Shown here piece after piece: positions 1-33,884 of a stretch of DNA of 64,000 nt. Position 1 is the stretch's first letter. Each line of letters begins with the position of its first letter. Origin of the DNA: Eledone cirrhosa. Its lineage: Eukaryota. The stretch covers positions 284,642,001 through 284,706,000 of the forward strand of contig OZ024742.1 of assembly GCA_964016885.1 (NCBI GenBank), read 5' to 3'. The position numbers and the translations under genes were made by a program. The notes under the pieces are model-generated. The model ran no database searches, was not told where the DNA came from, and worked only from the letters and a program-made list of their open reading frames with translations.

Positions 1-960
1 CCGAGGTGCTCGACACCATTACTGTCACGTCGTCGGCATAAGCCGACGCCGCTTTGCGCAGTCCCGGTTCTAGGGGGATGCCCTGCAACAGCTCCAATTT
101 CCGCAGTAGTGGCTCTAGAGTCAATATGTACAGAATGGAGGAGAGAGGGCATCCCTGTCGAATGGAACGCGTGATTGCGAACGGCTCCGATAGGTAGCCG
201 TTCACCTTGACCCTCGAGCAGATGCTGGTGTGCATCGCCTCGATCCATCCTCTGAACACGGGACCGAAACCGGCCGCCTTGAGAACCGCTTCCAAGTATC
301 GATGGTCGACCCTATCGAATGCCTTAGACTGATCCAAGTTGATCAGAGCCCCACCGAAGCCGGGTTTACTACCCACCCTCTCTATGATGTATCGCATGAG
401 GTGGAGGTTGTCGTGTATGGACCTGGTCGGGATTGCACACGTTTGCGCTTTCCCTACCAGGTTCTCGACGACAAGCGCTAACCTCGTCGCTAGCACCTTG
501 GCCAAAATCTTTAACTCTGTGTTGAGCAGAGTTATGGGCCTGAAGTTGTTAATTTCGTCCCCCTTGTTCTCGTCTTTCCTGATCAGCGTTACTACGCCCT
601 TGCCTGCAGAACTGGGAATTCTCCCGTTCTGCTGCCAATTGCAGTAGACGGCTTCGAGGACGCCAGAGAACAAGTCCGGCATGCCTATGTAAAATTCGTA
701 GGGTAGACCATCTAGACCGGGTGACTTGCGTTTCCCGCAGCGACCCAGAGCGTCCCGTATCTCAGTGTCCGTGATCGGTCTTTCGCAGAACTCGGCGTCC
801 GTGTTCGAGAGACGCGGCAGGCCGTCGAGGTATGAACTAAAGTCCATTGCCCCGTTTGGCTCACCGTCGTTCTGCTCAAACAGTCGCGCAAAGTGCCGCT
901 GAAAGGCCGCGCACATTTGCTTGGGGTCAAGTAGCACGCGTCCGTTTTGGTCTTTCAAAG
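1..960 (-). mobile_element. L1/Tx1-clade LINE, copy A: 5'-truncated ORF2 (RT region), continues past window start
   Basis: Minus strand encodes RT motifs (KSPGLDGLPYE, FRPITLLNTELKILAK, LDQSKAFDRVDH, RQGCPLS, AYADD). Collinear with but diverged from 2850-3810. Homology stops at 960, at the (GATA)n tail of the next copy. Confidence 0.9.
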
Positions 961-961
961 A

Positions 962-1261
962 GAGATAGATAGATATATTTCTTTATTAGCCACAGGGGCA
1001 CAAAAGAAGGGGACAAATACAAAGGGGGAAGTTTACATACAATAAAAACGTGTAAAATGTTATCACAGATGGAATTTAAAAGTTAGTCGATTTTCCCCAA
1101 TAGAGGGAGACAGTTTATATGGGTAACACAGACCCCCGAAAAAAATGTGCAACCCTCATCTCCAGGAGTACGAAGAGCTTGTACTCCTTTCCTCTCCTCC
1201 TCCTTTTCCTCAACCTACAGGCTGATATAGAGAGAAGGCCCATTCACTCGGGCCATTCTCG
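962..1261 (-). mobile_element. Tx1-type LINE 3'-end fragment, copy B (about 300 bp)
   Basis: End of ORF2, 3'UTR, AATAAA and (TATC)n tail on the minus strand. Appears identical to 7114-7409 (offset 6148). Confidence 0.9.
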
Positions 1262-1504
1262 AGATAGATAGATAGATAGATATATTTCTTTATTTACCAT
1301 AAAGGCATAAAAAGAAGGGACAAATACAAAGGGGGAGTTTACATACAATCGAGTAAAAAGGGTGTAACATGAAAATAATCGAAAATAACCTCAAAAGGGA
1401 GGGAACGTGATGGGGGTTGCACCCCCCCCCCTCCCGAAAAAGTGTGCAATGCTTTGCCCGGGGAGCACATGGAGAAGGTGCTCCCCTCTCCTTTACTTCT
1501 TTAC

Positions 1505-4500
1505 CTACAGGATGGTATACAGAGAAGGCCCATTTACACGAGCCATTCTCGACACTATCACCCACCTTTCATAAAACTGCCTGTGGCCAAGCACCTCTCT
1601 CTCCATTCTTATCCTTCTTCCGAAGTGATATCGGAAGAAGTAGACCAGACTATGGCCAGAGAGGAAGTTGCCTGACCTCAGACCTTTCAATCGTGTCCAC
1701 CAAACAACCTCTTTCAACATGGCTATTACGCACAGAAAAACCGCCTTTGCTTCCTTTGTGAAGAGGGGAGGCGGTTTAATTGTCATCACGGACTCGGCGG
1801 TCAATTGAATCGGCGCCACCCGCGACAGCAGTCGTTCGGCGTAGCCCCACAGATCAGCCACGCCCGGACATTGCACCAATGCGTGCGCAACGGTTTCTTC
1901 GTGACGCACGCATCTAGGGCAAATCTTTTTTGAGGGATCCCTGCCCGGGCGCCCGTGTCTGTAGAGCCTCTCTCGAACGGGTAGAGCCCCTCGGTAGCAC
2001 TACCAGGCCAGTGACTTCTGGAAGTTGTCCATTGGTCCTGGGCCGAAAGTCCTACCGAAAAGGCTGGCCAGTTCGTCTTCTTCCATGTCCAGCGACTCTC
2101 CAAGGGTGTCATCGCCCCTGCTAGCCACCAGCCCTCTATAGAATGATGAGGTGGATTCTCCACCGATGGCCTAGCCCGCTTGCCAGAGAGCCCTGAGCGC
2201 CTGAGCACACTCAGTGTGCCAGTCTTCCAGTTTTCCGGATCTTTGCTTGACCCAGGACTGTAGCTCGGTGAGCGAGACGAGTCTCGGAAAGGCTCGTTTC
2301 ACGAACGGAGCCCACACCGGTTGACCAGTGAGGAATACCTGTAGGTGCCGTAGCCTTAATGCGTGCCTACGCATCATCAACCACGGCATCCCCAGCCCTC
2401 CTTTCGAAGGTTGTTGGCAGCAGATGGATCTTCTCACCATAGGAGGGCGCTTCTTCCAAAGAAATTGGAAGAGCATGCGTTCCATGGTGGTGAGTGTTTC
2501 CTTAGGGCAAGGCACGACAGTCAGGCGGTAGTAAGTGACGGACGCTATGTAAATGTTCGCCACCTCCGCCCGGCCTTTTAGGGACAGCTTACACTTGGCT
2601 CATTTCTGGGTTAGTGCAAACACCTTGTTCGTAACCTCGTTCCAGTTCTTTTCCACCTGGAGGTCCGGTCCAAACCAGACCCCAAGCAACTTTACCGGGC
2701 CCTCCGTCCAGTGTCCGACGACACCGTCGGGAGGCATCGGTCTGCCTCTCCACGTTCCGAGTTGCAGCCCGATGGATTTTTCCCGGTTCAGTTTCGCTCC
2801 TGACAACCTTTCGTAATCCTGCAGTAAGGTACCGATCGCCTCGATCTCCGAGTCGGTCGATACCATTACTGTTACGTCATCGGCGTAAGCCGACACCGCT
2901 TTGCTCAATCCTGGTTCCAGAGGGATACCCTGCAACAACTCCAACTTCCTCAGTAAAGGCTCGAGAGTCAATACGTACAGAAGGGAGGAGAGAGGGCACC
3001 CCTGTCGAATGGATCGTGTGATTTCGAACGGCTTCGAAAGGTAGCCGTTCACCTTGATCCTAGAACAGATGTGGTTGCTATGTAAGGCAGTGATCCAGCC
3101 TCTGAAAACAGGACCGAACCCAGCCGCCGCTAGCACCGCATCCAGGTAACCATGGTCGACCCTATCGAAGGCCTTAGACTGATCCAAGTTGATCAGGGCC
3201 CCACCGAAGCCGGGTTTGTTGCCAACCCTCTCTATGATGTATCGCATGAGGTGGAGGTTATCGTGAATGGACCTGGATGGGATATCACATGTCTGCGCAT
3301 CTCCCACCAGGCCACCCACGACAAGCGCCAACCTCTTTGCTAACACCTTGGCCAAAATCTTTAACTCTGTGTTTAGCAGGGTTATGGGCCGAAAATTATT
3401 TATACTATCTCCCTTGTTCTCGTCCTTCCTCACCAGCGAGACTACGCCCTTGGCTACAGAACAAGGAATTCTCCCGTTCTGCTGCCAATTGCAGTAGACC
3501 GCTTCGAGGAGTTCGGAGAAGAAGACCGGCATTGCTAAATAAAGTTCGTAAGGTATACCATCGAGACCTGGAGATTTGCGTCTGCTGCATTGGCTCAGCG
3601 CATCTCCGATCTCATCAGCCGAGATTGGTCCCTCGCAGGACTCTGCCTCTTCGCTCGAGAGACGCGGCAGGCCGTCGAGGTATGGACCGAAATCCACGCC
3701 CCCGCCCGGACCCTCGCCTCCCCCGAACAATCGGGCAAAGTGCCTTTGAAAGGCCTCGCACATCTGCTTAGGCTCCCGGATCACCCGTCCATCTTCGTCT
3801 TGCAACGACCGGATGGTGGATCGATTTCCACTCTTAGCTTCTGTCACGCGGGCCCAGCCAACGGCTTTGGCCCCCTCATTACCTAGAGCACGTATTTTAC
3901 TTCGAATGACGCAGCCTTCGTGCTTTGCATCGAAAAACTGGTTCAAGGCCGTCCTCGATGCCAGCACTCTGGCCACATCTTCGCTCTTGATTGCCTCTTC
4001 TAATTTACCTGTTAATTCTTTCTCGTTTCTATTCCTATCGGCAGCTAACATCTTGCTATAACTTATTGATTCTGTTCTAATCTCTCTTTTGAGAGATGCC
4101 CACCATCGGTTGTTGACGATTGCACCCGTCAACCTCTCCTTAACTAATCTGCTAATCCAGTTTCTGTAAGTTTCTTTTGCCGGTAAAGACAAATTAAGTT
4201 TCCAGTAACCGGGACCCTGTTTATGTGTTTTCTCGAGATTGACTACGCAGGTCACTAATTTGTGATCCGTGTAGCCAACCGTGCGCATTTCTGGACAGCT
4301 TAATATGTCCCTATCCTTACTTCTAACTAAGAATCTATCTAAGTACGATCTAGATTGACCACTGTGGTTTCTCCAAGTCCAGGTAGGCACAGTTGGAAAA
4401 TCTAGTCGATATCTATCGACCAAGTTAAAACGGTTGAGTAACCCCTTGAGGCTGTTACACGCCCCTCTATTAGGACATGCTCCTGCATAGTCCCAACGTG

Positions 4501-4947
4501 CATCTAGGATGTCATTCCAATCCCCCGCTAGAAGCAGGGAACGCGACGTTCCCAGAAAAGTCTCCAAACGCTGGAAGAAGTCGGGCCGTTCAGCTCCGAA
4601 AGGGGAGTAGACGGCGACCAGTCTCAAGGCCGCACCTTCACTACTGCCAACGTCTAGCACCAACAAACGACCCTCTGGGTCCGAGTGCACAACCTGTACG
4701 GCAAGACCCAGGTGTTTTTGCAGCAGTACGACAACCCCACCCCCACCTCCAGGTTGACAGAGATCTCTCTGTCATGCACCTCAAAGTCATCGAAGGTAGG
4801 GGCCAGCTGCCGCACGACGCTGATCCGAGTCTCACAGATAACCATTACATTTATACCACATGACCTGAGGTCATTTAGAAGCTTTGCTTGCTTCCAAGTT
4901 GAGCCCAGGCCACGTGCATTCAAACATCCTACTCTTAACACATCCAT
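1505..4947 (-). pseudogene. ORF2: APE endonuclease, reverse transcriptase and zinc finger; frameshifted
   Basis: MDVLRVGCLNARGL (APE start), GDWN, SYLDRFLV, TDHKLV, GPGYWKLN, RQGCPLS, YADD, GGLGMP, EETVAHALVQCP. Split across ORFs 4654-4947, 2600-4690, 2171-2563 and 1505-1909. Confidence 0.92.
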
Positions 4948-4980
4948 GTGGGCGGCAAAGCCAAAGGAGAGTGTAGAGAC

Positions 4981-6920
4981 CTACCTTTCCACTTCCCGGG
5001 GTTCGGGTCGCACGACTTCCATGGGGTCGGGGGTGTTGGGTGAAGGGGTGTCTTGTGGTGGTGTGGGGTCGTCAGTGTGTGGTGGGGTTGGGGTGTTTGG
5101 AGTTGTGTTGGGGAAGGGAAGGGGAGAGGGAAAGCTTTTTAGTAGGACGCGGTTTATGGGTTTGACAGAGGGTGGTCCTACGTCCTCCTTAAAATCCTTT
5201 TTTAGTTTTTGGTAGAGGTTCATTGGGATCTTTATTAATTTTAAATGTGGGTAGTTTTCTGAAGAAACAAAGTTTACACCTTCGGTTTGTACCGAAGGAT
5301 TATTGTATATGAGTTCATTTAATTTATTATTGTTTCTGTTGATGTAAGTATAGTGTAATGTCTTTTTTTCGGGTGGTGTGAGTGTTTCGAAGAGGGGAGG
5401 GGCAGGTTTGGTTTTGTTTGTTGCTGGAGGGGTGTTTTCTGTTTTGTTGGATTGTGTTGAGATTTGGGTGGGGGTTGTTTGGCCTTGTGTGTTTTGCACA
5501 TGTTTTCTTTTTTTCCTTTTAATCTGTCTGAAGGACTCCGTTTCTTCCTCCGAATTCGTTGGGTTATCTTCAGTGTTGGAGGGAAGATGTATGTTTGCTG
5601 GTAATGTTTCCGTGTTGGTTTTCTTTGTGGGGGAGATGGATGTCACTATGTTAGACTGTGTTGTGTGTTGTGTCTGCGGTGGTTGTGTTGTTTTATTGAG
5701 TGAGGGGTTGGGTGGGCCTGTATTTTGTTTTGGGGTAATGTGTTGTGACTGTTTGTGTTGTGGTGGTGGTGTAGTTTTACTGAGGGACGGGTTGGGTGGG
5801 ACTGAGTTTTGTTGTTTGTTTATCTGTTGTGGTGGTGGTGGTGGAGCTGGTGTTGGTAGCAGGGTTTTCTTTTTGTTGAGTTGGGGACAAGCGGCCTTCA
5901 GGTGCCCTCTGCCTGCACAGATATGACAGGACGGCCTTCTCCCCTCCACGCTAATGTTTATATACCCGTGGCCCTCTAATAGGATTCTGTCGGGTATTTG
6001 GGCGATGCGTTCAGGCTTCATTTGCACTACCAGCTCTATACCTGTTCCACTGAACGCATTGCCTGTGGTTTTCCCAATGGAAATCACGTTGTCATTCACT
6101 AGATCGATGAAGCCAGCTATGAGCCAGCAGTAGTCCACATCTGGCATCATTGCATCCAGCCATATGCGTTGAGTTCTTTTACCCATATAAGATGGATAAA
6201 AGGTAAAATTTTTTGAACGAATCGGTGACAAAGCACATTCTTTTGCCGCCGATTCGTTCTTCATAATAATTGCTAGGCTTCCATACAGTCTGTCTTTTCT
6301 TATGAAAGTGGTTTCATTAAGTACTTCTGTGAGTACTGTTTTGATATCTGCCTGAGTTGGTTGTTCAGGTTATTTTGAAGTGTTGTTGATGGTGCGGAAC
6401 ACGACCGTTCGACTTTCAATGTCTTTGGTGAGTTCTTGAGGCATTTTTACCGATAAAATACCATTCTCTCCTTCACTTATGTATTGTTTGGCGTCTGTGA
6501 TTCTTCGTGCCACATCTGAAATATTTTCAGGTATATATGTCAAAGATTTCTTTGTTGTTTGTGCAAATGAAATCTTGTTGACTCTGTCGTCTGCTTTGCT
6601 TTCTGTTATGGTGTTATTTTCAAATGTTATTTTTGTGTTTGTTGTGTCTTTGTTTGTGGTATTAGTATTGTCATGTAATTTTTCAAATTTTTTTTTTTTT
6701 CGTTGTTGGAATCCATGTCCAGATTTGTGTTTTCGTCATTTTTCTCCGCCGATTCGTCTGTTTTTATTTTATTTTTTCCTTCCTTCTCTATGACGTTAGT
6801 TGGGAAGGAAGGGGGGACTAAAGCGTGCGAGCTTACAACTCTTACCGCTGTCCCCCCACCACTATTTTCGTTCGCTTCGTTTAACATTTCTGTCAGACGA
6901 TTGAAATTTTTTTGCCACAA
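4981..6920 (-). pseudogene. ORF1 (gag-like nucleic-acid binding protein), disrupted at the N-terminus
   Basis: ORF 4981-6264 has a CX2CX4HX4C knuckle (CHICAGRGHLKAAC) and a Pro/Thr-rich tail, and ends 33 nt before the ORF2 ATG. The upstream part is broken near the poly-T at about 6690 and a stop near 6370. Start position is uncertain. Confidence 0.8.
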
Positions 6921-7113
6921 AATTTTTTAAAACAGGTTTTTCACCTCTAGGAGGGGTAAAGATGAGCTGACCCACCGCCTGACAGTTCAGACGGGGGGTC
7001 AAGCTACACAATAGTATCAAAATTAAATTTGAACTCACAAAATTTCCGCAATAAATTTGAACAAAACTTCTGCGCTAAGTGAATTACATCCACACTGTAG
7101 AACAGACGACAGC

Positions 7114-8007
7114 TAGATAGATATATTTCTTTATTAGCCACAGGGGCACAAAAGAAGGGGACAAATACAAAGGGGGAAGTTTACATACAATAAAAACGTG
7201 TAAAATGTTATCACAGATGGAATTTAAAAGTTAGTCGATTTTCCCCAATAGAGGGAGACAGTTTATATGGGTAACACAGACCCCCGAAAAAAATGTGCAA
7301 CCCTCATCTCCAGGAGTACGAAGAGCTTGTACTCCTTTCCTCTCCTCCTCCTTTTCCTCAACCTACAGGCTGATATAGAGAGAAGGCCCATTCACTCGGG
7401 CCATTCTCGCCACTTTCACCCACCTTTCATAAAACTTGCTGGGGTACAGCACCTCTCTCTCCATCCTGATTCTTCTTCCAAAGTGGTATTTGAAAAAAAG
7501 AATCAGTTGTTGGCCGGAGAGAAAGGTGTCTGACCTCAGCCCTTTCAACCTTGTCCACCATACAACCTCTTTCGCCATAGCTATCACACAAAGGAAAACC
7601 GCCTCTCCTTCGTTTTTGAAGGAGGGTGGCGGTTTGATCATGACAATGGACTCGGTGGTCAACTGGATTGGTCCCACCCGCGACAATAGTCGTTCCACAT
7701 AGCCCCACAGGTCAGTGACGCCCGGGCAGTGTATGAATGCGTGCGCGACGGTTTCTTCGTCTCGCACGCACCTCGGACAGATCTTTTTTGCAGGGTCCCT
7801 GCCCGGGCGCCCATGTCTGTAGAGCTTGTCTCGAACTGGTAGAGCTCCTCGGTAGCACTGCCAGGCCAGGGACTTTTGGAAGTTGTCCATCGGTCCCGGG
7901 CGGAAGGTCCTACCGAACAGACTGGCCAGTTCATCTTCCTCCACGCCTAGAGTTTCACCGAGCGCGTCGTCGCACTTGCTGCGGACCAACCCTCTATAGA
8001 ATGACGA
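7114..8007 (-). mobile_element. Tx1-type LINE 3' portion, copy D (5'-truncated)
   Basis: ORF 7363-8028 encodes the ORF2 C-terminus (CPRCVRDEETVAHAFIHCP), homologous to 1505-2150. Same tail as B and C. Truncated at the junction with the 310-bp repeat. Confidence 0.9.
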
Positions 8008-8170
8008 ATATTCTATGTCTATATTCACATATATATCGCTATTTCAGAGCATTTATTCCAATTTCTAATTTCTGCCGGACCGGCAACCGCTCTTTCAAAC
8101 CAGTTCCTGTACACAGCTAAGTATTCTATAAGTCTCTAGCTGTGTCATTCTCGATAAAAGCACTGGATAT

Positions 8171-8213
8171 GTAGTCCTGATGATTTCTAACGAGAATGAA
8201 ACGCGTAGATTAC
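8171..8213 (+). ncRNA. Type I hammerhead ribozyme (family 1, copy 1)
   Basis: Stem I GTAGTC/GATTAC, CTGATGA (8177-8183), stem II TTCT-AACG-AGAA, GAAA (8198-8201), CGCG, then TA; predicted GUA cleavage after 8207. Stem I is extended by a perfect 16-bp helix 8147-8162/8220-8235. Confidence 0.88.
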
Positions 8214-8480
8214 TTCCCTTGCTTTTATCGAGAATCTAATTGTAATACGTGACGTATTCTATTCTATAGCGATTAGGTCTTCAAAATGTTTATTATAAAC
8301 ATACAGAATATTTTCGAATATTCTATGTCTATATTCACATATATATCGCTATTTCAGAGCATTTATTCCAATTTCTAATTTCTGCCGGACCGGCAACCGC
8401 TCTTTCAAACCAGTTCCTGTACACAGCTAAGTATTCTATAAGTCTCTAGCTGTGTCATTCTCGATAAAAGCACTGGATAT

Positions 8481-8523
8481 GTAGTCCTGATGATTTCTAA
8501 CGAGAATGAAACGCGTAGATTAC
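8481..8523 (+). ncRNA. Type I hammerhead ribozyme (family 1, copy 2)
   Basis: Identical to 8171-8213, offset +310. Confidence 0.88.
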
Positions 8524-8790
8524 TTCCCTTGCTTTTATCGAGAATCTAATTGTAATACGTGACGTATTCTATTCTATAGCGATTAGGTCTTCAAAATGTT
8601 TATTATAAACATACAGAATATTTTCGAATATTCTATGTCTATATTCACATATATATCGCTATTTCAGAGCATTTATTCCAATTTCTAATTTCTGCCGGAC
8701 CGGCAACCGCTCTTTCAAACCAGTTCCTGTGCACAGCTAAGTATTCTATAAGTCTCTAGCTGTGTCATTCTCGATAAAAGCACTGGATAT

Positions 8791-8833
8791 GTAGTCCTGA
8801 TGATTTCTAACGAGAATGAAACGCGTAGATTAC
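8791..8833 (+). ncRNA. Type I hammerhead ribozyme (family 1, copy 3)
   Basis: Identical to 8171-8213, offset +620. Confidence 0.88.
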
Positions 8834-9145
8834 TTCCCTTGCTTTTATCGAGAATCTAATTGTAATACGTGACGTATTCTATTCTATAGCGATTAGGTCT
8901 TCAAAATGTTTATTATAAACATACAGAATATTTTCGAATATTCTATGTCTATATTCACATATATATCGCTATTTCAGAGCATTTATTCCAATTTATATAT
9001 ATATATATATATATGTATATGTAGGAGGTGAGTTTTATTGTAGTACAATAAAGCAATGCAGATATCGGATAAGAAGCACTCTAAAGTATGTGGAACTGGA
9101 GTATGCATAATATAAGATCAAAAGATGGTTAAAGGAGTTCAATAT

Positions 9146-9214
9146 ATTTTATTATGCGCATTTCAAAAACAAACATCATCAAACAATAATATTTGTGTTT
9201 TCATCAGATAAAAC
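9146..9214 (-). ncRNA. Type I hammerhead ribozyme (family 2, inverted arm copy)
   Basis: Reverse complement of 12634-12702; TCATCAG at 9201-9207. Confidence 0.85.
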
Positions 9215-9977
9215 AGGAGAACATGATATGAAGGCTAAAAAAAAAAAACACTTGTTGATAGTGCAGTTTTAAATCAACATATGAAAAGTGGTTTTAGATT
9301 GATGTGTGATATTGGGAAAAATATTTTATTTAGAGAGGGGGGGAGAGAAAAGGATGAAAAGGGAAGGAGATGAGAGGGAGAGATGGGTGATAGAGAGAAA
9401 GAGATAGTTTTTATAACTGAGAGGAGATATATTTTATATAGAGGGGTTGAAAACCGTTGGAAGATACTGTATAAATTAAAAATTTTGAAAATTAACGAAG
9501 GGAGGATATGTGCGAGGAAAAAATATATTATATTTAGGGAGGGGTGGGGGTGGAAAGGATGAAAAAAAGGGGAGGAGATGAGAGTGAAGGTGGAAAGGGA
9601 GAGATGGGTGATAGAGAGAAAGAGATAGTTTTTATAACTGAGAAAAAGATATAGAGAGGTTGGGAACCGTTGGAAGATAATGTATAAATTAAAGGAATTT
9701 GAAAATTAACGAAGGGAAATTATGTATGGAGATAGAGAGAAAAAAATAACGAAGGGAAATTATGTATGGAGATAGAGAGAAAAAAATAATAATTGTGGGT
9801 TAATATTCTAACGTCAAAAGAAGAAATGTAGGAATTTTAAAATTAGCAAAGAGAAAAAGTTTATGTGTAGAAGGATTTGGGAAAAATAATGTGAAGTTAA
9901 AGTTTTTATATTGAATTCATATGTATTAATAATGAGTTCGTTGATGGGGAGAAAAAAATAATAATAAATTAAGGATG

Positions 9978-11401
9978 CATCCGATTCATCCCAATTGACT
10001 GATTTAATTGGTATCTTCATTTTGAACTCTTTGAGTCGGAAAATTCCTCAACTTCGCGGTGGAATTTATCGTGACGATGGACTCTTTACTATCCTAAATT
10101 GCAATACAGTTAAACTTAATATTATTAAGAACAATATACGTAATCTCTTTAACCAACATAACCTAAAAATTGAATTTGATAATAGTACCAAACTAGCTAA
10201 TTTCTTGGATGTATCTCTTAATCTTGACACTGGCCTATATTACCCTTACCATAAAAACAATGAGAATCTTAATTATGTTAACTTTAAATCTAACCATCCT
10301 ACCAATATCAAGAATGCTATAGTTAATAATATTGGAAATAGAATATCTAACATATCTTCTAATAAAAACATCTTTGATGCTAACGCCAATTACTATAATA
10401 ACGCACTTTCTAAAGCCGGCTATCCAGATAAAATCAAATATAATAAAGAAACAAATTCTAGGAAAACTTACAGTAGAATATTTAATCATAACCATTCCAA
10501 TAATTTTAATAAAAGACCTAGATACAAAAACATAATCTGGTATAATGCTCCTTTCTCCATCTCTATTAATAACAATATTCCTAAATTATTTTTTAGTGCC
10601 TTAAATAAATGCTTCCCTCCCTACCATATCTATAGTAAAATATTTAACAAACACACCATCAAATTTTCGTATTCTACATCCTCCAATATTTCCAACATCA
10701 TCTCTAAACACAACAACAAAATAATAAATACTAAATCTCTTCCTTCCAATATTGAATCTCATAATAACAATAATAGTACTCCTGACGTCATTGTAAACCC
10801 TAGGCTAACTTCTGTAAACCCAAATGCAACGTCAAACACAACTTCGCTAAATGTTCATAATCCAACTCTAAATCAAGAAACTATTATTCCTATTATTCCT
10901 ATCGCAAACAACTTCTCCAATCCAATTCCTTCTATAGATAACACTAGATCACTCATTAATAATCTCTCTAATTGCAACTGCCGCATTAAAAATAAATGTC
11001 CTCTCAACAACCATTGCCTCGATAAAAACTTAATTTATGAATGTAAAATTATAACTAGCACCAATTCCTTCACCTATTTTGGCTCCACTTCCACCTCTTT
11101 TAAAGCTCGTCTCTATAATCATCATTCATCTTTCAAATACAAACTTAAAAGAACTAACACTGCTCTCTCAGAACTCATATGGTCCTTAAAAGACAAAAAC
11201 ATTAAATATAACATCTTTTGGAAAAAGATTTCTTCTGCATCCTCGTACTTGAACAGCTCTCTATCTAAAATCTGTAATCTCTGCCTAAATGAAAAATTTA
11301 CCATTATTTCTAACCTAGAATCCATAATAAATAGACGCTCGGATTTGTTTTCCATCTGCCTGCATAAATTCCATAGAACTTTTCACAAAGTATACAGTTA
11401 A
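9978..11401 (+). CDS. PLE polyprotein C-terminal part: RT (YRDD), Cys-rich linker and GIY-YIG endonuclease; 5'-truncated but uninterrupted
   Basis: SDSSQLTDLIG, GGIYRDDGL, NFLDVSL, YYPYHK, IIWYNAPFS, CNCRIKNKCPLNNHC, LIYECK...YFGST..FKARLYNHH, CNLCLNEK, CLH. Confidence 0.9.
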
Positions 11402-11454
11402 TATTCAATTCTTTATCAATTTAGAATCTTTTCTCAAAGGCACATATACATACA

Positions 11455-11895
11455 CCTCTTTAAAATATACCCATCTACCTTACTTTAAAGGGCATTATAC
11501 ACTCTATAATACTCGTTTACTCATTACCCTCATCCTATCTTCTCGTAAAACAATAACATTTGTTTTTGACATTTTGAATATTCATCCGCAATCATTATTA
11601 TTTTTTTCCCTCTATCATAAATCTTTTTAATCTCAATTTCATCCTTAATTTATTATTATATATTTTTTTTTAATATATACTCATATATTCTTTAAAATAT
11701 ACCCATCTACCTTACTTTAAAGGGCATTATACACTCTATAATACCCGTTTACTCATCACCCTCATTATATCTCCTCGTAAAACAATAACATTTGTTTTTG
11801 ACATTTTGAGTATTCATCCGCAATCATTATTATTTTTTCTCTCTATCATAAATCTTTTTAATCTCAATTTCATCCTTAATTTATTATTATTTTTT
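11455..11895 (+). repeat. About 232-bp tandem duplication in the PLE-A 3'UTR
   Basis: TAAAATATACCCATCTACCTTACTTTAAAGGG occurs at 11461 and 11693. Confidence 0.85.
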
Positions 11896-12633
11896 TCTCC
11901 CCATCAACGAACTCATTATTAATACATATGAATTCAATATAAAAACTTTAACTTCACATTATTTTTCCCAAATCCTTCTACACATAAACTTTTTCTCTTT
12001 GCTAATTTTAAAACTCCTACATTTCTTCTTTTGACGTTAGAATATTCACCCACAATTATTATTTTTTTCTCTCTATCTCCATACATAATTTCCCTTCGTT
12101 ATTTTTTTCTCTCTATCTCCATACATAATTTCCCTTCGTTAATTTTCAAATTCCTTTAATTTATACATTATCTTCCAACGGTTCCCAACCTCTCTATATC
12201 TTTTTCTCAGTTATAAAAACTATCTCTTTCTCTCTATCACCCATCTCTCCCTTTCCACCTTCACTCTCATCTCCTCCCCTTTTTTTCATCCTTTCCACCC
12301 CCACCCCTCCCTAAATATAATATATTTTTTCCTCGCACATATCCTCCCTTCGTTAATTTTCAAAATTTTTAATTTATACAGTATCTTCCAACGGTTTTCA
12401 ACCCCTCTATATAAAATATATCTCCTCTCAGTTATAAAAACTATCTCTTTCTCTCTATCACCCATCTCTCCCTCTCATCTCCTTCCCTTTTCATCCTTTT
12501 CTCTCCCCCCCTCTCTAAATAAAATATTTTTCCCAATATCACACATCAATCTAAAACCACTTTTCATATGTTGATTTAAAACTGCACTATCAACAAGTGT
12601 TTTTTTTTTTTAGCCTTCATATCATGTTCTCCT

Positions 12634-12702
12634 GTTTTATCTGATGAAAACACAAATATTATTGTTTGATGATGTTTGTTTTTGAAATGCGCATAATAAA
12701 AT
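12634..12702 (+). ncRNA. Type I hammerhead ribozyme (family 2) near the PLE-A 3' end
   Basis: GTTTTAT, CTGATGA (12641-12647), about 16-bp stem II, GAAA (12684-12687), TGCGCA, TA, ATAAAAT. Predicted AUA cleavage after 12695. Confidence 0.87.
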
Positions 12703-12766
12703 ATATTGAACTCCTTTAACCATCTTTTGATCTTATATTATATATATGTATATATATATATAGAGA

Positions 12767-13459
12767 GAGAGAATTAGTATATCTACCAACATATGTATAC
12801 AGATGTATACCCATGCTAGCAAATATATATGTTATGTCTTAGTACCTTTGTGGTTCTATGCAGGGGGATGCAGAACAATTATATGAAAGACGTAAAATAA
12901 GAAAATTTTAAAATTAAAAATTAACTTACTTACTAAAATTTTCACTCCAACTAATTAGTTTCTGTAAGGGAATAAATATAGTTGCGTAATGTAACTATAG
13001 AGAAGTCCTTACGTCATCAGGGAGTCTATTCTCAGCTAAGTTCCCAGGCAATGCGCGGACACTAGGAACCCATATAAAAATAATAATTCAGTGGATGGAA
13101 TAAAATTAGCGGGGACTAAATTCCAGGGCACTGAAAAAATTCACTGCCTACTTGGTCAGTGGCAAATTCTAAAGAATCTCAATCACGTGACACTGAGGTT
13201 AATCAGTGAGGAGTGGGGTGGTATTATGACAAGAGCCTAACTACTACCATGAACCATAGCAGTAAATTTTGGCAAGTTTCGCTCAACAAATAATTTGGAG
13301 ATAAATATAGAGAATTAGTATATCTACCAACATATGTATGCAGATGTATACCCATGCTAGCAAATATATATGTTATGTCTTAGCATCCCCCTGCATAGAA
13401 CCACAAAGGTACTAAGACATAACATATATATTTGCTAGCATGGGTATACATCTGTATAC
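12767..13459 (-). mobile_element. Non-coding HHR-containing element: 541-bp unit, partial second unit and a 77-bp inverted segment
   Basis: 12771-12842 is directly repeated at 13312-13383. 13383-13459 is the reverse complement of 12795-12871. Minus-strand 3' end abuts (TC)n(TA)n. Confidence 0.8.
12944..13025 (-). ncRNA. Type I hammerhead ribozyme (family 3)
   Basis: Minus strand: ACTCC, CTGATGA, stem II GTAAGG...CCTTAC with an inner TATAGTT/AACTATA helix, GAAA, palindromic CTAATTAG, TT, GGAGT. Predicted GUU site. Confidence 0.83.
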
Positions 13460-13718
13460 CCATCTGTATACTAGCTTAATTAAAACATCGAGTGAGTGGG
13501 AAAGCGATCAAAGATTTGTGTGTGTGTAAGTTCGCTCCCGAGCGCTACTGGTAATATGTAACCCAGAACATGTTACACTGTGTGGTCGTCGGTGACTAAA
13601 CCGGCAACCCCACCAAGCTTGCTTATTGAGAAGAGTGGGTATTGGACAACCTGCGGGACGAAAAGCAAAACCCGTTGAAGGGCGGAAGAACTCATGTGAA
13701 TCAACGGCCACCCATTAG

Positions 13719-13895: not shown

Positions 13896-13930
13896 ACGAC
13901 GTTTCGGGCATAAGCCCTTCTTCAGGTGAA
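13896..13930 (-). ncRNA. Minimal type I hammerhead ribozyme (family 4)
   Basis: Minus strand CTGAAGA-A-GGGC-TTAT-GCCC-GAAA-CG-TC. Palindromic ACGT stem III, GUC site. Adjacent stem I is only about 2 bp. Confidence 0.75.
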
Positions 13931-14845
13931 AAGTGTGTGGGAAGAGAGTTCAAAGGGTGTGTAGGGGAGTGGTGGAGAGACATATAGCAAAAAGGGGGTG
14001 AGAGGAAACGGTGCAAATGAAATTAAAAATAAAGGCATGATCAAAATAAAATTAAAATGGGGTAAAACAGGTGGTGGAAGGGTGTGGGGCGTGTAGGGGT
14101 GGTGGCGGGTGGAGTGGGGAGAGGGAGATGGGGTGTCCGAGCGGGGAGGGCTGAAGGTGGTGTGTGTGTGTAGGTGTACGTGTGTGTGTGTGTGTGTGTA
14201 TGTGAAAGCAAGGGTTGGGGGAAGAACGGGGTTGCATGTTCTGGAAGAGGTGTGTGTGGGGTGGGGTGTAGGTCGGAGTGTGTGTGCGTGTGGGGGTAGA
14301 GGGGTGGGGGGAGAGGATTCCGGAGGTTGAATGTGTAAATATGTGGTGGTACGCACGTGTGTGGGTGGTGTTTATGCGTGTTGTGGATGTAGGTGGCGTG
14401 TGGGAAAAAAAATGTTTTGGGGTGTGTGTGGGGTGAGTCATAAAGGTAATTCCGTAAAAAGATGTGGTGGAATGCTGAGTAAAATCCTGGGATGCGGTGG
14501 ATTCTCGGGATCAAGGTTCACATATGTGTAATCCGTGAAGAGATTGGTCGGAAGAGGGGAAATGTGGGGTGGGCGCGCAACAGGAAGTGGTCAGAGGGTC
14601 AAGGCAGGAGGAGTGTTGTGTATATGTGTGTGCGGGGAGGTGGTCAGAGGGAATAGCAGCAGTAGGGTAGAATGGTAAGTGAAGGTGTGTTGTGTGTCTG
14701 TGTGTGCGGGGAGGTAGTCAGAGGCATAGCAGCAGTAGGGTAGAATGGTAAGTGAAGGTGTGTCAGTGTGTGCGGTGGACAGGGGAGAGGATGGGTAGGT
14801 GTGAAAGTTGGAGTGAGGTGAGGGGGGGAGGGGGGTGGTCGAAGG

Positions 14846-17603
14846 CTAAAGGAATAAGGGTGGGGAGTTCAGGCCGGGGGGAGTGTGGGTCTGTAAGATG
14901 AAGATGGTTCGTTGTTCGACTCTTAGGAGATTGGCGGGTGTTCCGTGGCATTGGAGTAGGTCACAGACTGTGAGATGGTGTGCGGAATGTCCAGGGGCAC
15001 CAAAGTGGCGGGCGATGGGGGAACTACCACCGAGACGAATATCCCGGAGGTGCTCAGTAAATCTGTCCGCCAGGCGACGTCCAGTCTGTCCGACGCAAGT
15101 CGCGCTGCACTCCGTGCAGCGAAGTCCGTAGACTAGGTTGGAGGAGGTGCAGCGGAAGGCATGCCGGACAGAGAGAGAGTGGCCGTTGGGACCCTGGAAG
15201 GTGGTGGTGTTGGTGATGTGGGGACAGGTGTTGCAGCGGGGCCTAGAACAGGGAAAGGAACCGGGGGGGGGGCGTGAGTTGGGAGGTAGGGAGCTGTGGA
15301 CGAGGAGGGTGCGGAGATTGCGTGCGCGTTTGAAGGAGGGGAGTGGTGAGGCTGGGAAGATGTGGGAGGTGGAGGGGTCGGACTGGAGGCGTCGGAAGAG
15401 GCGGAGGATGGTGCGGTGGAGGGGTATGGTGGAGGGGTGGTAGGTGATGGGGAAGGGGAGACGTTGGGTGGGTGTGCGGTGGCGTGGGGTGAGGGTGATG
15501 GAGCGGTGGACAGCACGGGCGCGGGTGAGAGCGGTGTGGACGAGAGAGGGGGGGTAACCTCTGCGGATGAAATGGCTGACTAGGGAAAGGGCCTGGGACT
15601 CAAAGTCGGCATCTCGGCTACAGAGGCGGCGGATCCTGAGGAGTTGGGAGTAGGGAATAGAGTGTTTAGTGTGTGTGGGGTGGGAAGAGGTGAAGTCGAG
15701 GTAGGAGTGGGAGTCGGTGGGAGGGGTCGAAGGCGACGGAGATGTCTAAGAAGTGGACGTGGGTGGTGGAGATAGAGGTGGTGAAGTGGAGGGAGGGGTG
15801 GAAGGAGCAGAAGAAGGAGAGAAAGGAGTCGAGCTGTTCTCGGGTGAGGGTCGTGGCTCCGATACAGTCGTCGATGTAACGACCGTACAGTTCGGGCGTG
15901 GGGCCGGTGTACTGGGCAAAGATTTGGGCCTCAATATGGCCAACAAAAAGGTTGACATAGTTTGGGCCCATTATTGTACCCATGGCTACCCCCGTGACCT
16001 GTTGGTAAAACTCACCCGAGAAGGAGAAACAGTTGAGGGTGAGGACCAGTTCGGCGAGGCGAAGGAGGGTGGGGGTGGAGGGAATGGGGGAGGGGCGAAG
16101 GTCGAGGTAGTGTTTGAGGGCGCGTAGGCCGTCGGCGTGGGGGATGACGGTATAGAGGGACTTGATGTCTAGGGTGAAGAGGAAGGGCTGTGGGCCGGGT
16201 GGGTAGGTGAAGGAGTCGAAAAGGCGCAGGGCGTGGTTGGTGTCGGAGATGTGGGAGGGGAGGGTGGTGACAAGGGGGGCGAGGATGGAGTCGAGAAAGG
16301 CGGAGATGAGTTCGGTGGGGCAGTTGCAAACGGAGACGATGGGGCGGCCGGGGTTGTCGGGTTTGTGGAGTTTGGGGAGGAAGTAGATGGTGGGGGTGAG
16401 GAGGGTGCGAACGATGAGGTGGGAAGCGGTGGGGGGAGGAGGGAGGAGGAGACAAGGTGTTGGATGGTGGAGGAAACTTGTTGTTGGTAGAGGGGTGTGG
16501 GATCGGAGGGTAGAGGGCGGTAGAAGAGGAGCTGCCTGAGGGCTTCGGCCGTGTAGAGGTTCGCGCACCACACCACCACGGCGCCTCCCTTGTCCGCCGG
16601 TTTGATGACGATGTCCTCTCGGCTACGGAGGGAGCGGAGAGCGAGGAGTTCGCCCCGTGAGATGTTACTCCGTTTGGAACAGTGGCGGAAGTCGAAACGA
16701 TTTACGGCGCTACGGCTGGCATCGACGAACGTGTCCAGGGTGCTAAATTGCCCTGGGGCCGGCGTCCAAGAAGATGGTCGTCGGCCCAGGGCGAGAAACG
16801 GGTCTGGGGCGTTCGGAGCCGGTGGCGTTCGGCCGAAATGTGCCTGTAGCTTCGTGCGTCGCACGAATCGCTCGACTTCCGTTCGGGTGCGGAACTCGTC
16901 GCTGTGCGGAGTGTGGGGTATGAAGCGAAGGCCTCTACTAAGAAGTGAGCGCTCAGGTGCGGAGAGGGGGAGGTCAGGGGGTATGGTGACAACAAGTGGT
17001 GGGGTTTGGGGGTGTGAGGGGGAAGGGAGGGTGTGGTGAGGGGTGAGATGGAGGGTGGAGATTGGGTAGGGGTGTGTGTCGAGGGAGGGGTGGAAAGTGG
17101 TGGGCTCATAGGGATGGGCGGGTGGTGGTGGATGGGGGTGGTTGGGAGGAGTGAGTGTAGCTTGCGGGCTTTGGTGGAGGTGAGGAAGAAGAGGTCGTGG
17201 TTGAGGTTTTGGATGAATAGGAGGATGGCTTGGGCGAGGAGGGGGTGGCAGGTGGAGTTAAGGAAGAGGAGGGTGGGGGTCAGTTGGTGGTCAAGTTTGC
17301 GGAGGGTGGAACGGGAGGCGTGGATGGAGTTGCGCATTAGGAGGCGTGAGGATCGGGTGAGGATACGTTGCGTGGAGGGGGAAGCGGCGGGGGAAGTGTG
17401 GAAGGTTAGACGGAAGCCGAGGGGGATAAGGTGGAGGCGGAGGCAGTGGCTGAGGAAATGGATGTGGCTGGAGTGCCGGGTTTTGGCGAAGAGAAGGTAG
17501 GAGAGTTGAAGGGCAGAGGGGAGATAGCAGGGTAGGAGGAGGGGGTGAGAAAAAGTTTGAGGCTAGTGTGTAGTTGGTGGAGAAAGGATCTCAGGCTGGG
17601 CAT
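14846..17603 (-). pseudogene. PLE-B ORF: RT, CX4CX2C linker and GIY-YIG endonuclease; several frameshifts
   Basis: IVIKPADKGGAVVV, YFLPKLHKPDNPGRPIVS, DIKSLYT, GVAMGT, RYIDD, FLDI, then PCSRPRCNTC, NLVYGLRC..C...CVGQTGRRLADRFTEH, PPGLN; stop at 14846-14848. Confidence 0.9.
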
Positions 17604-28459: not shown

Positions 28460-28600
28460 TATCATCTCATTTCTACAGCTGAGTAAACTGGAGTAACGTG
28501 AAATAAAGTGTCTTGCTCAACACATCACCCGATCCGAGAATTGAACTCACAACCTTTAGATTTCAAGCCCAATGCTCTAACTACTAAGCCATGCGCCTTC
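28460..28600 (-). mobile_element. tRNA-derived SINE 5' part
   Basis: Minus strand reads GGCGCATGGCTTAGTAGTTAGAGCATTGGGC...GTGAGTTCAATTCTCGG, an A-box/B-box-like tRNA head. Related to 22825-23070. Confidence 0.65.
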
Positions 28601-29393
28601 ACATGGAATTGGTGTCAGTTATAACTGACACCAATTCCTTTACCTATTTTGGCTCCACTTCCACCTCCTTTAAAGCTCGTCTTTATAACCATCATTCGTC
28701 TTTTAAATACAAACTTAAAAGAACCAACACGGCTCTCTCAGAACTCATATGGTCCTTGAAAGACAAAAATATTAAATATAGCATCTTTTGGAAAAAGGTT
28801 TCTATTAGTTCTCTATCCAAGATTTGTAATCTCTGTCTAAATGAAAAATTTACCATTATATCTAATTTAGATTCTATAATAAATAGACGCACTGACTTGT
28901 TTTCTCTCTGCTTGCATAAATTCCACAAAACATTCCACAAAGTATACAGCTAATATCCAAAACTTTATCAATTTAGAATCTTTTTCTCAAAGGCACATAT
29001 ATATACTTCTTTAAAAATATACCCATCTTTCTACCTTATTTCAAAGTTATTTATTATACATTATATAATACTTGTTACTCATTCTATATCACTCCTATTT
29101 ATCACTTCCCTTTCTTCATTTTCCCTTTCTTCTCTTTTTCTTTTAATGTTTAACCCCTAATCTGTACCTTTTCTCACTGTTGCCTAACATAGAAACAATT
29201 ATTACACAATACAATACATTCTTACTTTATATTACCTTGCAAAAATCCTTCGTAAACATAAACATTTTTTGACGTTAGATTATTCATCCTCAATTCATTA
29301 TTTTTTTTCTCCCTTTCATCTAACTTATTCATGCTCATCTCACAATATATCCTTACTTACATTACTTGTTGTTCTTTTTAATAATACATATCA

Positions 29394-29550
29394 ACATTTT
29401 CTTTCCATCGCACATATTATTAGACCCTTAAATATTATTCTTAATACATATTAACATTTTCTTTCTATCGCACATATTATTAAACCCTTAAATATTATTC
29501 TTAATACATATTAACATTTTCTTTTCATCGCACATATTATTAAACCCTTC
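29394..29550 (+). repeat. 60-bp tandem repeat (about 2.6 copies) within the PLE 3'UTR
   Basis: CTTT..ATCGCACATATTAT at 29401, 29461 and 29521. Confidence 0.85.
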
Positions 29551-29907
29551 AATATACAAACCTTAACTTTACATTATTTTTTCCTTCGTTAATTTTCAAA
29601 TTCTTTTAATTTATACATTATCTTCCAACGGTTTTTCAACCTCTCTATGTAAAACAATATATTTCTCTCAGTTATAAAAGCTATCTCTCTCTCTCTATCA
29701 GCCATCTCTCCTCCTATCTCATCCTTCCTCATTATACTCCTCCCTCTCCACTTTTTACTCTCATCTCCTCCTCTTTTTCATCCCCTCCCCCCCTTAAAAA
29801 ATATATATTTTTCCCAATATCACACATCAATCTAAAACTACTTTTCATATGTTGATTTAAAACTGCACTATCCACAAGTGTTTTTTAACCTTCATATCAT
29901 GTCTTCC

Positions 29908-29978
29908 TATTTTATCTGATGAAAACACAAATATTATTGCATGATGATATTTGTTTTTGAAATGCGCATAATAAAATA
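29908..29978 (+). ncRNA. Type I hammerhead ribozyme (family 2, third copy)
   Basis: TATTTTAT, CTGATGA (29916-29922), stem II, GAAA (29959-29962), TGCGCA, TA, ATAAAATA. Confidence 0.87.
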
Positions 29979-30006
29979 CATGGAACTCTTTTAACCATCT
30001 TTTGTT

Positions 30007-30156
<150 letters not shown>

Positions 30157-32916: not shown

Positions 32917-33884
32917 GATTCCCAGCCTGTGTTTCACAGATCCCTGGATTCCCAGCCTGTGTTTCACAAGTCCCTGAATTCCCAGCCTGTGTTTCACAGA
33001 TCCCTGGATTCCCAGCCTGTGTTTCACAGATCCCTGGATTTCCAGCCTGTGTTTCACAGATCCCTGGATTCCCAGACTGTGTTTCACGGATCCCTGAATT
33101 CCCAGCCTGTGTTTCACAGATCCCTGGATTCCCAGCCTGTGTTTCACAAGTCCCTGAATTCCCAGCCTGTGTTTCACAAGTACCTGGATTCCCAGCCTTT
33201 GTTTCACAGATCCCTGGATTCCCAGCCTGTATTTCACAGATCCCTGGATTTCCAGCCTGTGTTTCACAGATCCCTGGATTCCCAGACTGTGTTTCACGGA
33301 TCCCTGAATTCCCAGCCTGTGTTTCACAGATCCCTGGATTCCCAGCCTGTGTTTCACAAGTCCCTGGATTCCCAGCCTGTGTTTCACAAGTACCTGGATT
33401 CCCAGCCTTTGTTTCACAGATCCCTGGATTCCCAGCCTGTATTTCACAAGTCCCTGGATTCCCAGCCTGTTTCACAAGTCCCTGGATTCCCAGCCTGTGT
33501 TTCACGGATCCCTGAATTCCCAGCCTGTGTTTCACAGATCCCTGGATTCCCAGCCTGTGTTTCACAAGTCCCTGGATTCCCAGCCTGTGTTTCACAAGTA
33601 CCTGGATTCCCAGCCTTTGTTTCACAGATCCCTGGATTCCCAGCCTGTATTTCACAAGTCCCTGGATTCCCAGCCTATTTCACAAGTCCCTGGATTCCCA
33701 GCCTGTGTTTCACAGATCCCTGGATTCCCAGCCTGTGTTTCACAGATCCCTGAATTCCCAGCCTGTGTTTCACAAGTCCCTGGATTTCCCTGGATTCCCA
33801 GCCTGTGTTTCACAGATCCCTGGATTCCCAGCCTTTGTTTCACAGGTCCCTGGATTCCCAGACTGTGTTTCACGGATCCCTGGA
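32917..33884. repeat. 30-bp minisatellite (about 32 copies), unit GATTCCCAGCCTGTGTTTCACAGATCCCTG
   Basis: Direct observation. Variant pattern recurs every 210 bp. Confidence 0.97.

Follow-up and report, generated by a model that had tools for sequence, protein, structure and literature searches.

What produced the short tandem array at positions 8005–8994 of the window (the 64,000-nt stretch of Eledone cirrhosa DNA analysed here), and which machinery placed it against a (TA)n tract? A preliminary description regarded it as a retrozyme, with one hammerhead per unit and a predicted circular RNA. Both the enzyme that moves such elements and the origin of their arrays, by rolling reverse transcription or by local amplification, are stated to be open in the accessible texts of two studies (PMC7229834; 10.64898/2026.07.22.740005), and a young family makes both readable from insertion ends and haplotypes. 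We consider it probable that the array represents a single insertion of a young, dispersed and ORF-free hammerhead retrozyme, made in one step when the reverse transcriptase of a Penelope-like element (PLE) rolled on one 310-nt monomer RNA for which a circular form is predicted. The family as a whole is likely to travel as a passenger without a protein of its own, a small RNA of predicted circular form serving repeatedly as its template.

TRF and unit alignment resolved 8005–8994 into 3.19 copies of a 310-nt unit (TRF: period 310, 3.2 copies, 99%) with a single mismatch over 990 nt, constituting a one-armed insertion (features lie on the forward strand unless marked −). No ORF of at least 90 aa lies inside the array, and the two that overlap it do so only within its first 116 nt, which bears out the claim of 3.2 near-identical, non-coding units. 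It starts 108 nt past a predicted cut site and finishes 167 nt past one, enclosing two complete predicted cut-to-cut monomers, at 8208–8517 (from sequence and fold, the RNA itself being a prediction) and 8518–8827 (from sequence); the cut coordinates proposed earlier (8207, 8517 and 8827) agree with the positions of the motifs. At 310 nt and a GC content of 34.5%, the non-coding unit falls within the 150–450 bp and <50% GC of non-LTR retrozymes.

Each of the three units carries a complete type I hammerhead motif (8171–8213, 8481–8523 and 8791–8833; predicted cuts after 8207, 8517 and 8827), and the intact core described for each unit is accompanied by all three stems in 3/3 units. Motif 1 is recognized from sequence and from covariation in relatives, motifs 2 and 3 from sequence. 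In motif 1, a 6-bp stem I (GTAGTC/GATTAC, 8171–8176/8208–8213) is followed by the core CTGATGA (CUGAUGA in RNA; 8177–8183), by a stem II with four base pairs above a T.T apposition (TTCT-AACG-AGAA; 8184–8197), by GAAA, and by a stem III consisting of the palindrome ACGCGT (8201–8206), in which one or two pairs can form, with GUA at 8205–8207. A 16-bp helix extending stem I beyond an internal loop (8147–8235, pairing 8147–8162 with 8220–8235) and a hairpin (8111–8145) with 9-bp arms (8111–8119/8137–8145) were also noted previously; both pairings are exact, and the former requires a multimer, a circle or a folded monomer in order to close. Folding of 8100–8245 gave a z score of −5.5 (0/200 shuffles as good) and that of the linear monomer −3.9 (1/100 shuffles), while the circular monomer reached −67.8 kcal/mol against −47.9 ± 4.6 kcal/mol for shuffled sequences (0/100), although stem II has a pairing probability of only about 0.15 in the predicted circle, which speaks against the favoured reading.

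An Rfam search returned no hammerhead in the window array, at the gathering score or at E ≤ 10, and a loose core pattern is by itself not significant (21 matches in the window, a figure that 5 of 100 shuffles reach); the ribozyme assignment is accordingly based on stem pairing and on the covariation seen among related subfamilies, not on a library match. Within the family, variation falls at tolerated sites, N7 being U, A or C and loop II AACG, AACA or AAUA; the base of stem II is either U.U or A-U, and stem I is preserved through G-U/A-U exchange. Older subfamilies keep the ribozyme fold with different helices I–III that still pair. Among 49 distinct motifs from fetched loci, positions 3/8 are C-G in 29, U-A in 19 and U-G in one, broken motifs being under-counted in this sample as extraction demanded a near-intact core; the U3-A8 swap is listed as a known hammerhead variant in the accessible text of PMC4209133. 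The U-U apposition at the base of stem II is present as first described, but is not atypical: it has been reported for the axolotl retrozyme motif HHR_Amex2 (PMC7229834, in its accessible text) and is replaced by A-U in other haplotypes.

The self-complementary stem III (ACGCGU, 1–2 bp) predicts a monomer that would cleave weakly and depend on dimers for cleavage; both the palindrome and this prediction are absent from the preliminary description. For metazoan type I motifs, helix III is described as too weak for efficient monomer cleavage, with tandem copies folding as dimers, and the layout of the unit's hammerhead is the one set out there as canonical (PMC4209133, accessible text).

By sequence criteria the family is a metazoan non-LTR retrozyme, a known class, its cleavage and circular RNA being predicted; the sampled loci are dispersed, multicopy and devoid of an ORF. 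A scan of the genome (3.0 Gb in 1,796 contigs) with the exact 43-nt core gave 4,033 matches, and 0 with the control. Unit-private differences amount to approximately 5 per 10,000 nt, so that the family is young and the earlier reading of near-identity as a recent event is upheld. Six sequencing runs contain the family, none of them recorded as RNA, and contigs of runs X1 and X2 provided one 340-nt piece (a unit plus overlap) in which a circle and tandem DNA are indistinguishable. No published account of this family turned up in the literature searched, most subscription journals being outside reach.

Older sister subfamilies of approximately 320 nt have phases ~60–235 in common with the 310-nt unit (phase being the number of nt after the predicted cut); they show the same tailed and tail-less ends as described below, a longer stem III and often U3-A8 cores (L072:5017–5819, L121–L132 and L133–L151). 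A 16-mer located 3′ of both end sites (8388–8403; 18,504 exact matches) is conserved in these subfamilies and is a candidate protein-binding signal. Another abundant, pLTR-like family, termed H (L188:884, L192:7791–7887 and L203–L232; 10,001 rows in the pattern search), has a hammerhead core and a U.U stem II that nearly match those of the 310-nt unit, while the remainder differs. Module exchange between family H and the retrozyme is possible on this similarity; no tie of family H to an ORF was established in the loci inspected.

Junctions between the unit and (TA)n fall into two classes genome-wide, i.e. a tailed class at phase 165 or 167 (1,218 junctions) and a tail-less class at phase 130 or 139 (1,307 junctions), both counts being lower bounds as they come from exact patterns that miss end variants. 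The modal 3′ ends (phase 130 or 139 vs. 165) therefore lie 26–35 nt apart (~30 nt). In the window, the tail-less site (8957–8966, phase 130–139, a ACATATATAT stretch), which forms a 3′ end at those 1,307 genomic places, is read through, and the insertion terminates in a PLE-type tail (8967–8994, phase 140–167) recognized by end comparison. The 3′ end of this tail would be the first reverse-transcription start and the tail-less site presumably the second. Arm 5′ ends are scattered across the unit, and the suggestion that other loci begin and end at permuted positions thus holds for the 5′ ends but fails for the 3′ ends, which sit at two fixed sites ~130–139 and ~165 nt past the cut.

Both classes of end meet within single insertions. 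Ten loci, the first encountered on contig C1, were picked by core and not by ends; in nine of them an inverted array meets a direct one head-to-head, and each of these nine has both a tailed and a tail-less end. Junctions listed up to 202 Mb of this contig comprise 86 tailed and 100 tail-less ones; outward-facing pairs ≤20 kb apart join one of each class in 65/65 cases, and of the 56 junctions without a partner, fetched as sites or regions, most have a second arm with a variant end. The 90 fetched regions contained 73 two-armed insertions, 70 of which were complete and all 70 mixed, together with 21 one-armed rows, some of these being clipped at the edge of the fetched region or hiding a very short second arm. 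After 20 regions were added, 85/85 scored complete two-armed insertions had one end of each type, a set that overlaps with the 65 pairs. This scoring omits the window, the incomplete or overlapping loci L050, L066, L233, L234, L236 and L243, the complex joins of L034 and L041, and one truncated duplicate in L058; all parsed family loci come from contig C1, the window excepted. In L058 an entire two-armed insertion is apparently duplicated in tandem ~3 kb apart, with an identical inner join.

Inner joins at the 85 loci show an overlap of 1–5 nt (36 loci), filler (33), a blunt junction (13) or a longer overlap (3). The median arm length is 3.6 units and the maximum ~45 units, 88% of arms exceeding one unit. 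Both flanks have at least 80% TA steps in 71/85 loci under a strict test, with several misses being parser edge effects caused by end variants. The non-integer array ending in (TA)n had been taken as a sign of rolling reverse transcription; rolling is supported by the within-locus haplotypes presented below, but (TA)n is the insertion target, found on both flanks. Target-site duplications >4 bp were seen at 3/85 loci against 1.8 in shuffled flanks (maximum 5), pure (TA)n masking duplications.

PLE insertions are described as carrying an inverted 5′-truncated copy and a tail of 30–40 bp at one end only (PMC8557442 and PMC3846280, accessible texts). In vitro, an anole PLE protein cuts AT-rich DNA and extends both strands, the tail being the gap between two internal reverse-transcription starts (PMC11167929). 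Autonomous PLE families in the genome analysed here have the identical two-end pattern in (TA)n, with tails of ~45–80 nt. The retrozyme insertions match this signature, with an inverted 5′-truncated copy, a one-sided tail and a (TA)n target, the window locus being one-armed. From these ends, mobilisation of the retrozyme by PLEs appears very probable.

The target tract of the window insertion (8995–9014, no strand assigned) is common to the retrozyme and to the tailed end of a neighbouring PLE, a separate two-armed insertion at 9024–12746 with a partial RT-GIY-YIG frame (9968–11401) and a perfect 876-bp inverted repeat. This PLE has its own hammerhead with a long stem II (~12635–12701) and a tail on its left end only, ~80 nt long vs. 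30–40 nt in print, and both its ends recur in other copies. Its architecture is like that of the retrozyme, but it has no sequence match to the 310-nt unit and was rejected as a partner. On the other side, the 5′ end of the array meets head-to-head, via a few shared bases, a 3′ fragment of a Tx1/L1-like LINE (zf-RVT; 7120–8004, −), a flank outside the element; that the sequence left of 8005 might be a short inverted arm was ruled out, as it continues the LINE. Four Tx1/L1-like LINE copies are stacked in 1–8004 (−); every copy terminates in a (GATA)n-type tract and borders directly on the following one, which suggests that they inserted into one another's tails.

Elsewhere in the window lies a second, GC-rich PLE (13898–17257, −), whose frames for RT and GIY-YIG are frameshifted and which has a minimal hammerhead-like motif (13898–13925). 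A small element at 12778–13463 has a palindromic end and includes two direct copies of an 83-bp repeat, 541 bp apart, together with overlapping inverted repeats of 77 bp. A weak tRNA-like match (28534–28591, −), probably a SINE head, adjoins a PLE 3′ fragment (28588–30013). A 30-bp minisatellite occupies 32917–33884, and a 29-kb satellite of ~1,390 copies of a 21-bp unit extends over 34749–63997.

The mode of copying was approached through sequence variants. Both arms carry the same haplotype at 55/58 loci of a first set and at 62/66 loci of a second one, in which ten loci chosen by exact core were left out and new loci added; in the latter, with 34 haplotypes, 10,000 shuffles gave a mean of 5.9 and a maximum of 16. 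Per locus, and at positions covered at least five times, 125 variants are present in all units, 98 in one unit and 8 at intermediate frequency. Seventeen fixed variants are confined to one sampled locus each, and new variants fixed across whole arrays in one step call for a monomer stage. In-register minority variants are found in one arm only in 74 cases and in both arms in five, the five sitting in two loci, a distribution that disfavours the second arm being a DNA copy of the first. The data being an assembly, arm identity could be inflated by inter-arm conversion or by assembly polishing, but the many one-arm singletons speak against this. Among sense-strand singletons, T>C changes outnumber A>G changes (18 vs. 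5; one-sided P = 0.019, post hoc), which fits what is expected of reverse-transcriptase errors. The within-locus haplotype patterns are consistent with the rolling reverse transcription of one monomer put forward in the preliminary description, and a circle is the form of that monomer template which we favour.

A minority of loci behave differently. In L237 the haplotype changes after two units from the 3′ ends, in both inverted arms, and in L091 one singleton is common to both arms; this in-register sharing (2/85 loci) points to an ordered multimer template at these loci. The haplotype changes part-way along one arm in L060, and variant patterns recur at 7 and 18 units in L235 and in the 45-unit arm of L233/L234. 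The recurring patterns indicate a contribution from later expansion or large multimers, and the exceptions as a group imply that these few loci were shaped by template switching, conversion, subsequent expansion or ordered multimers. The variants shared in L237 and L091 would be expected if the PLE machinery copied linear, multimeric read-through RNA from a genomic array, slowly cut by a weak ribozyme, with circles being rare or an occasional bottleneck; the weak stem III, the U.U in stem II and the observation that the anole PLE in vitro used mainly uncleaved RNA (PMC11167929) also agree with such a template. By itself, however, a linear multimer cannot homogenise arrays for new locus-private variants (17, with 34 haplotypes), and 74 of the 79 in-register minority variants occur in one arm only; we regard it as unlikely to be the general template.

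Quite improbable is a cleaved linear monomer as template, with the reverse transcriptase, on reaching its 5′ end, jumping each time to a 3′ end, either that of the monomer just copied or that of a different one. Such jumping would likewise give a monomer bottleneck and could account for the changes of haplotype in L237 and L060. However, the arms contain 793 crossings of the cut site, whereas just 4/162 5′ ends fall ≤3 nt from it (3.1 expected), and this lack of a run-off excess argues against a linear monomer template; moreover, mixed arrays are almost absent despite 34 coexisting haplotypes. For Xenopus retrozymes, local amplification has been proposed (10.64898/2026.07.22.740005, accessible text), whereby single pLTR-like monomers would insert and then expand into arrays by unequal crossing-over. 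Here it would explain the variant block repeats of the longest arrays (L235 and L233/L234) and the eight intermediate-frequency variants, but it is rendered highly improbable by the 88% of arms longer than one unit, by the presence of several units in both inverted arms, whose 3′ phases are fixed and whose 5′ phases are random, and by variants that are almost exclusively fixed or single, with strand-biased singletons.

An independent retrozyme had been expected to be free of PLE ORFs in at least some of its copies. No PLE frame was found upstream of an arm in sense when six window proteins were compared with 90 loci, and in two-armed loci the 5′ ends join each other, with arms of up to ~45 units containing no unique sequence, which supports independence. 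One locus has a PLE fragment head-to-head with a one-armed array. No RT plus GIY-YIG ORF attached to the repeat, as in an autonomous PLE, was present in the loci examined, nor did any of 50 GIY-YIG loci (of 150 scored, from 10,597 candidates) contain the 310-nt unit, the 30 top-scoring and 20 long-frame loci among them belonging to other PLE families with unrelated ends. Twelve loci with a lone 16-mer and 20 with tail variants yielded nothing beyond members of this family and of older sister subfamilies devoid of ORFs. It is scarcely credible that the loci are truncated 3′ ends of an autonomous PLE whose terminal repeats, in tandem, provide the units, for despite an end architecture identical to that of PLEs no arm of up to ~45 units in the sampled loci enters unique element sequence and none has a sense PLE frame upstream.

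The GIY-YIG loci L183–L202 comprise multiple PLE families with RT followed by GIY-YIG, L183 having a 938-aa frame between tandem pLTRs and some loci U3-A8 hammerheads. In L193:8061–9600, a hammerhead-bearing unit is repeated four times at a spacing of ~500 nt, with (TA)n between copies.

Under the favoured reading, a PLE enzyme rolling on one monomer, tandem loci would be transcribed and paired hammerheads would cut the transcripts into monomers of 310 nt; given the 1–2-bp palindrome of stem III, they would probably act as dimers. A ligase would then close the monomers, as in characterised retrozymes. A PLE protein would nick both (TA)n strands, and cDNA synthesis would start at two internal sites ~30 nt apart, one per target end, which are the end positions observed. 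Both cDNAs would then roll for a variable number of turns, their far ends being joined through the microhomology or filler seen at the junctions; the window locus would have retained the tailed arm only, and for the longest arrays some additional growth once inserted is probable. A more specific version is offered tentatively, in that we lean slightly against it as a whole: an enzyme dimer would prime both ends of the cut (TA)n on one ribozyme-made circle and both cDNAs would roll at once with strand displacement, across >1,200 insertions. If the proposal is true, the loci would document at the genomic level, as none of the papers searched was found to do, that PLE machinery makes animal retrozyme arrays directly as arrays out of circular RNA, and the tail plus the conserved 16-mer would constitute a compact cis-signal for the PLE enzyme. 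The exact start sites and the 310-nt substrate are now named for an in vitro PLE assay of circular vs. linear RNA, with a bearing on how the inverted-arm and tail structure of PLEs arises.

The closest known systems are the metazoan non-LTR retrozymes of coral, mussel and axolotl (Cervera and de la Pena, 2020; PMC7229834), which, in the accessible text, share with the 310-nt family non-coding tandem units of 150–450 bp, a GC content <50%, a type I hammerhead per unit, a self-paired fold and coexisting PLEs. The unit unites a weak palindromic helix III like that of axolotl Amex1 with the U.U helix II base of Amex2. Cleavage and circular RNA were demonstrated there in three species; both are predicted for the present family. 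That study considers PLEs strong candidate movers and offers rolling cDNA synthesis as a model; its main text does not mention inverted arms, tails or microsatellite targets. Li, Clavereau and Pollet (2026; bioRxiv 10.64898/2026.07.22.740005) treat vertebrate retrozymes as PLE-dependent derivatives on the basis of co-occurrence and pLTR homology, propose local amplification, and report cleavage in only 1/9 Xenopus retrozyme dimers tested, a result that weighs against the favoured reading; insertion tails and inverted arms of retrozymes are not mentioned in the main text, to which the comparison was confined. PLE dependence is concluded in both cases, but here the link lies in the insertion ends, the arrays seemingly arose during insertion, and the loci examined contained no homologous pLTR partner. 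A comparable analysis of retrozyme ends and haplotypes was not found in the searched literature, to which most subscription journals did not belong.

Among PLEs themselves, the algal Chlamys elements such as MRC1 (PMC8557442, accessible text) are likewise non-autonomous, multicopy and head-to-tail PLE-type insertions, but the group is described as lacking canonical hammerheads, and the 3′ ends of these elements resemble that of their autonomous partner. The EN+ PLEs (Arkhipova, 2013, PMC3846280; Craig, 2021, PMC8557442; Frangieh, 2024, PMC11167929), as far as their accessible texts describe them, share with the retrozyme an inverted 5′-truncated copy, a one-sided tail of ~30 nt, an AT-rich or (TA)n target and a hammerhead upstream of the ends. 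The retrozyme differs from them in having no ORF, in consisting entirely of one 310-nt repeat and in that both of its arms are long tandem arrays.
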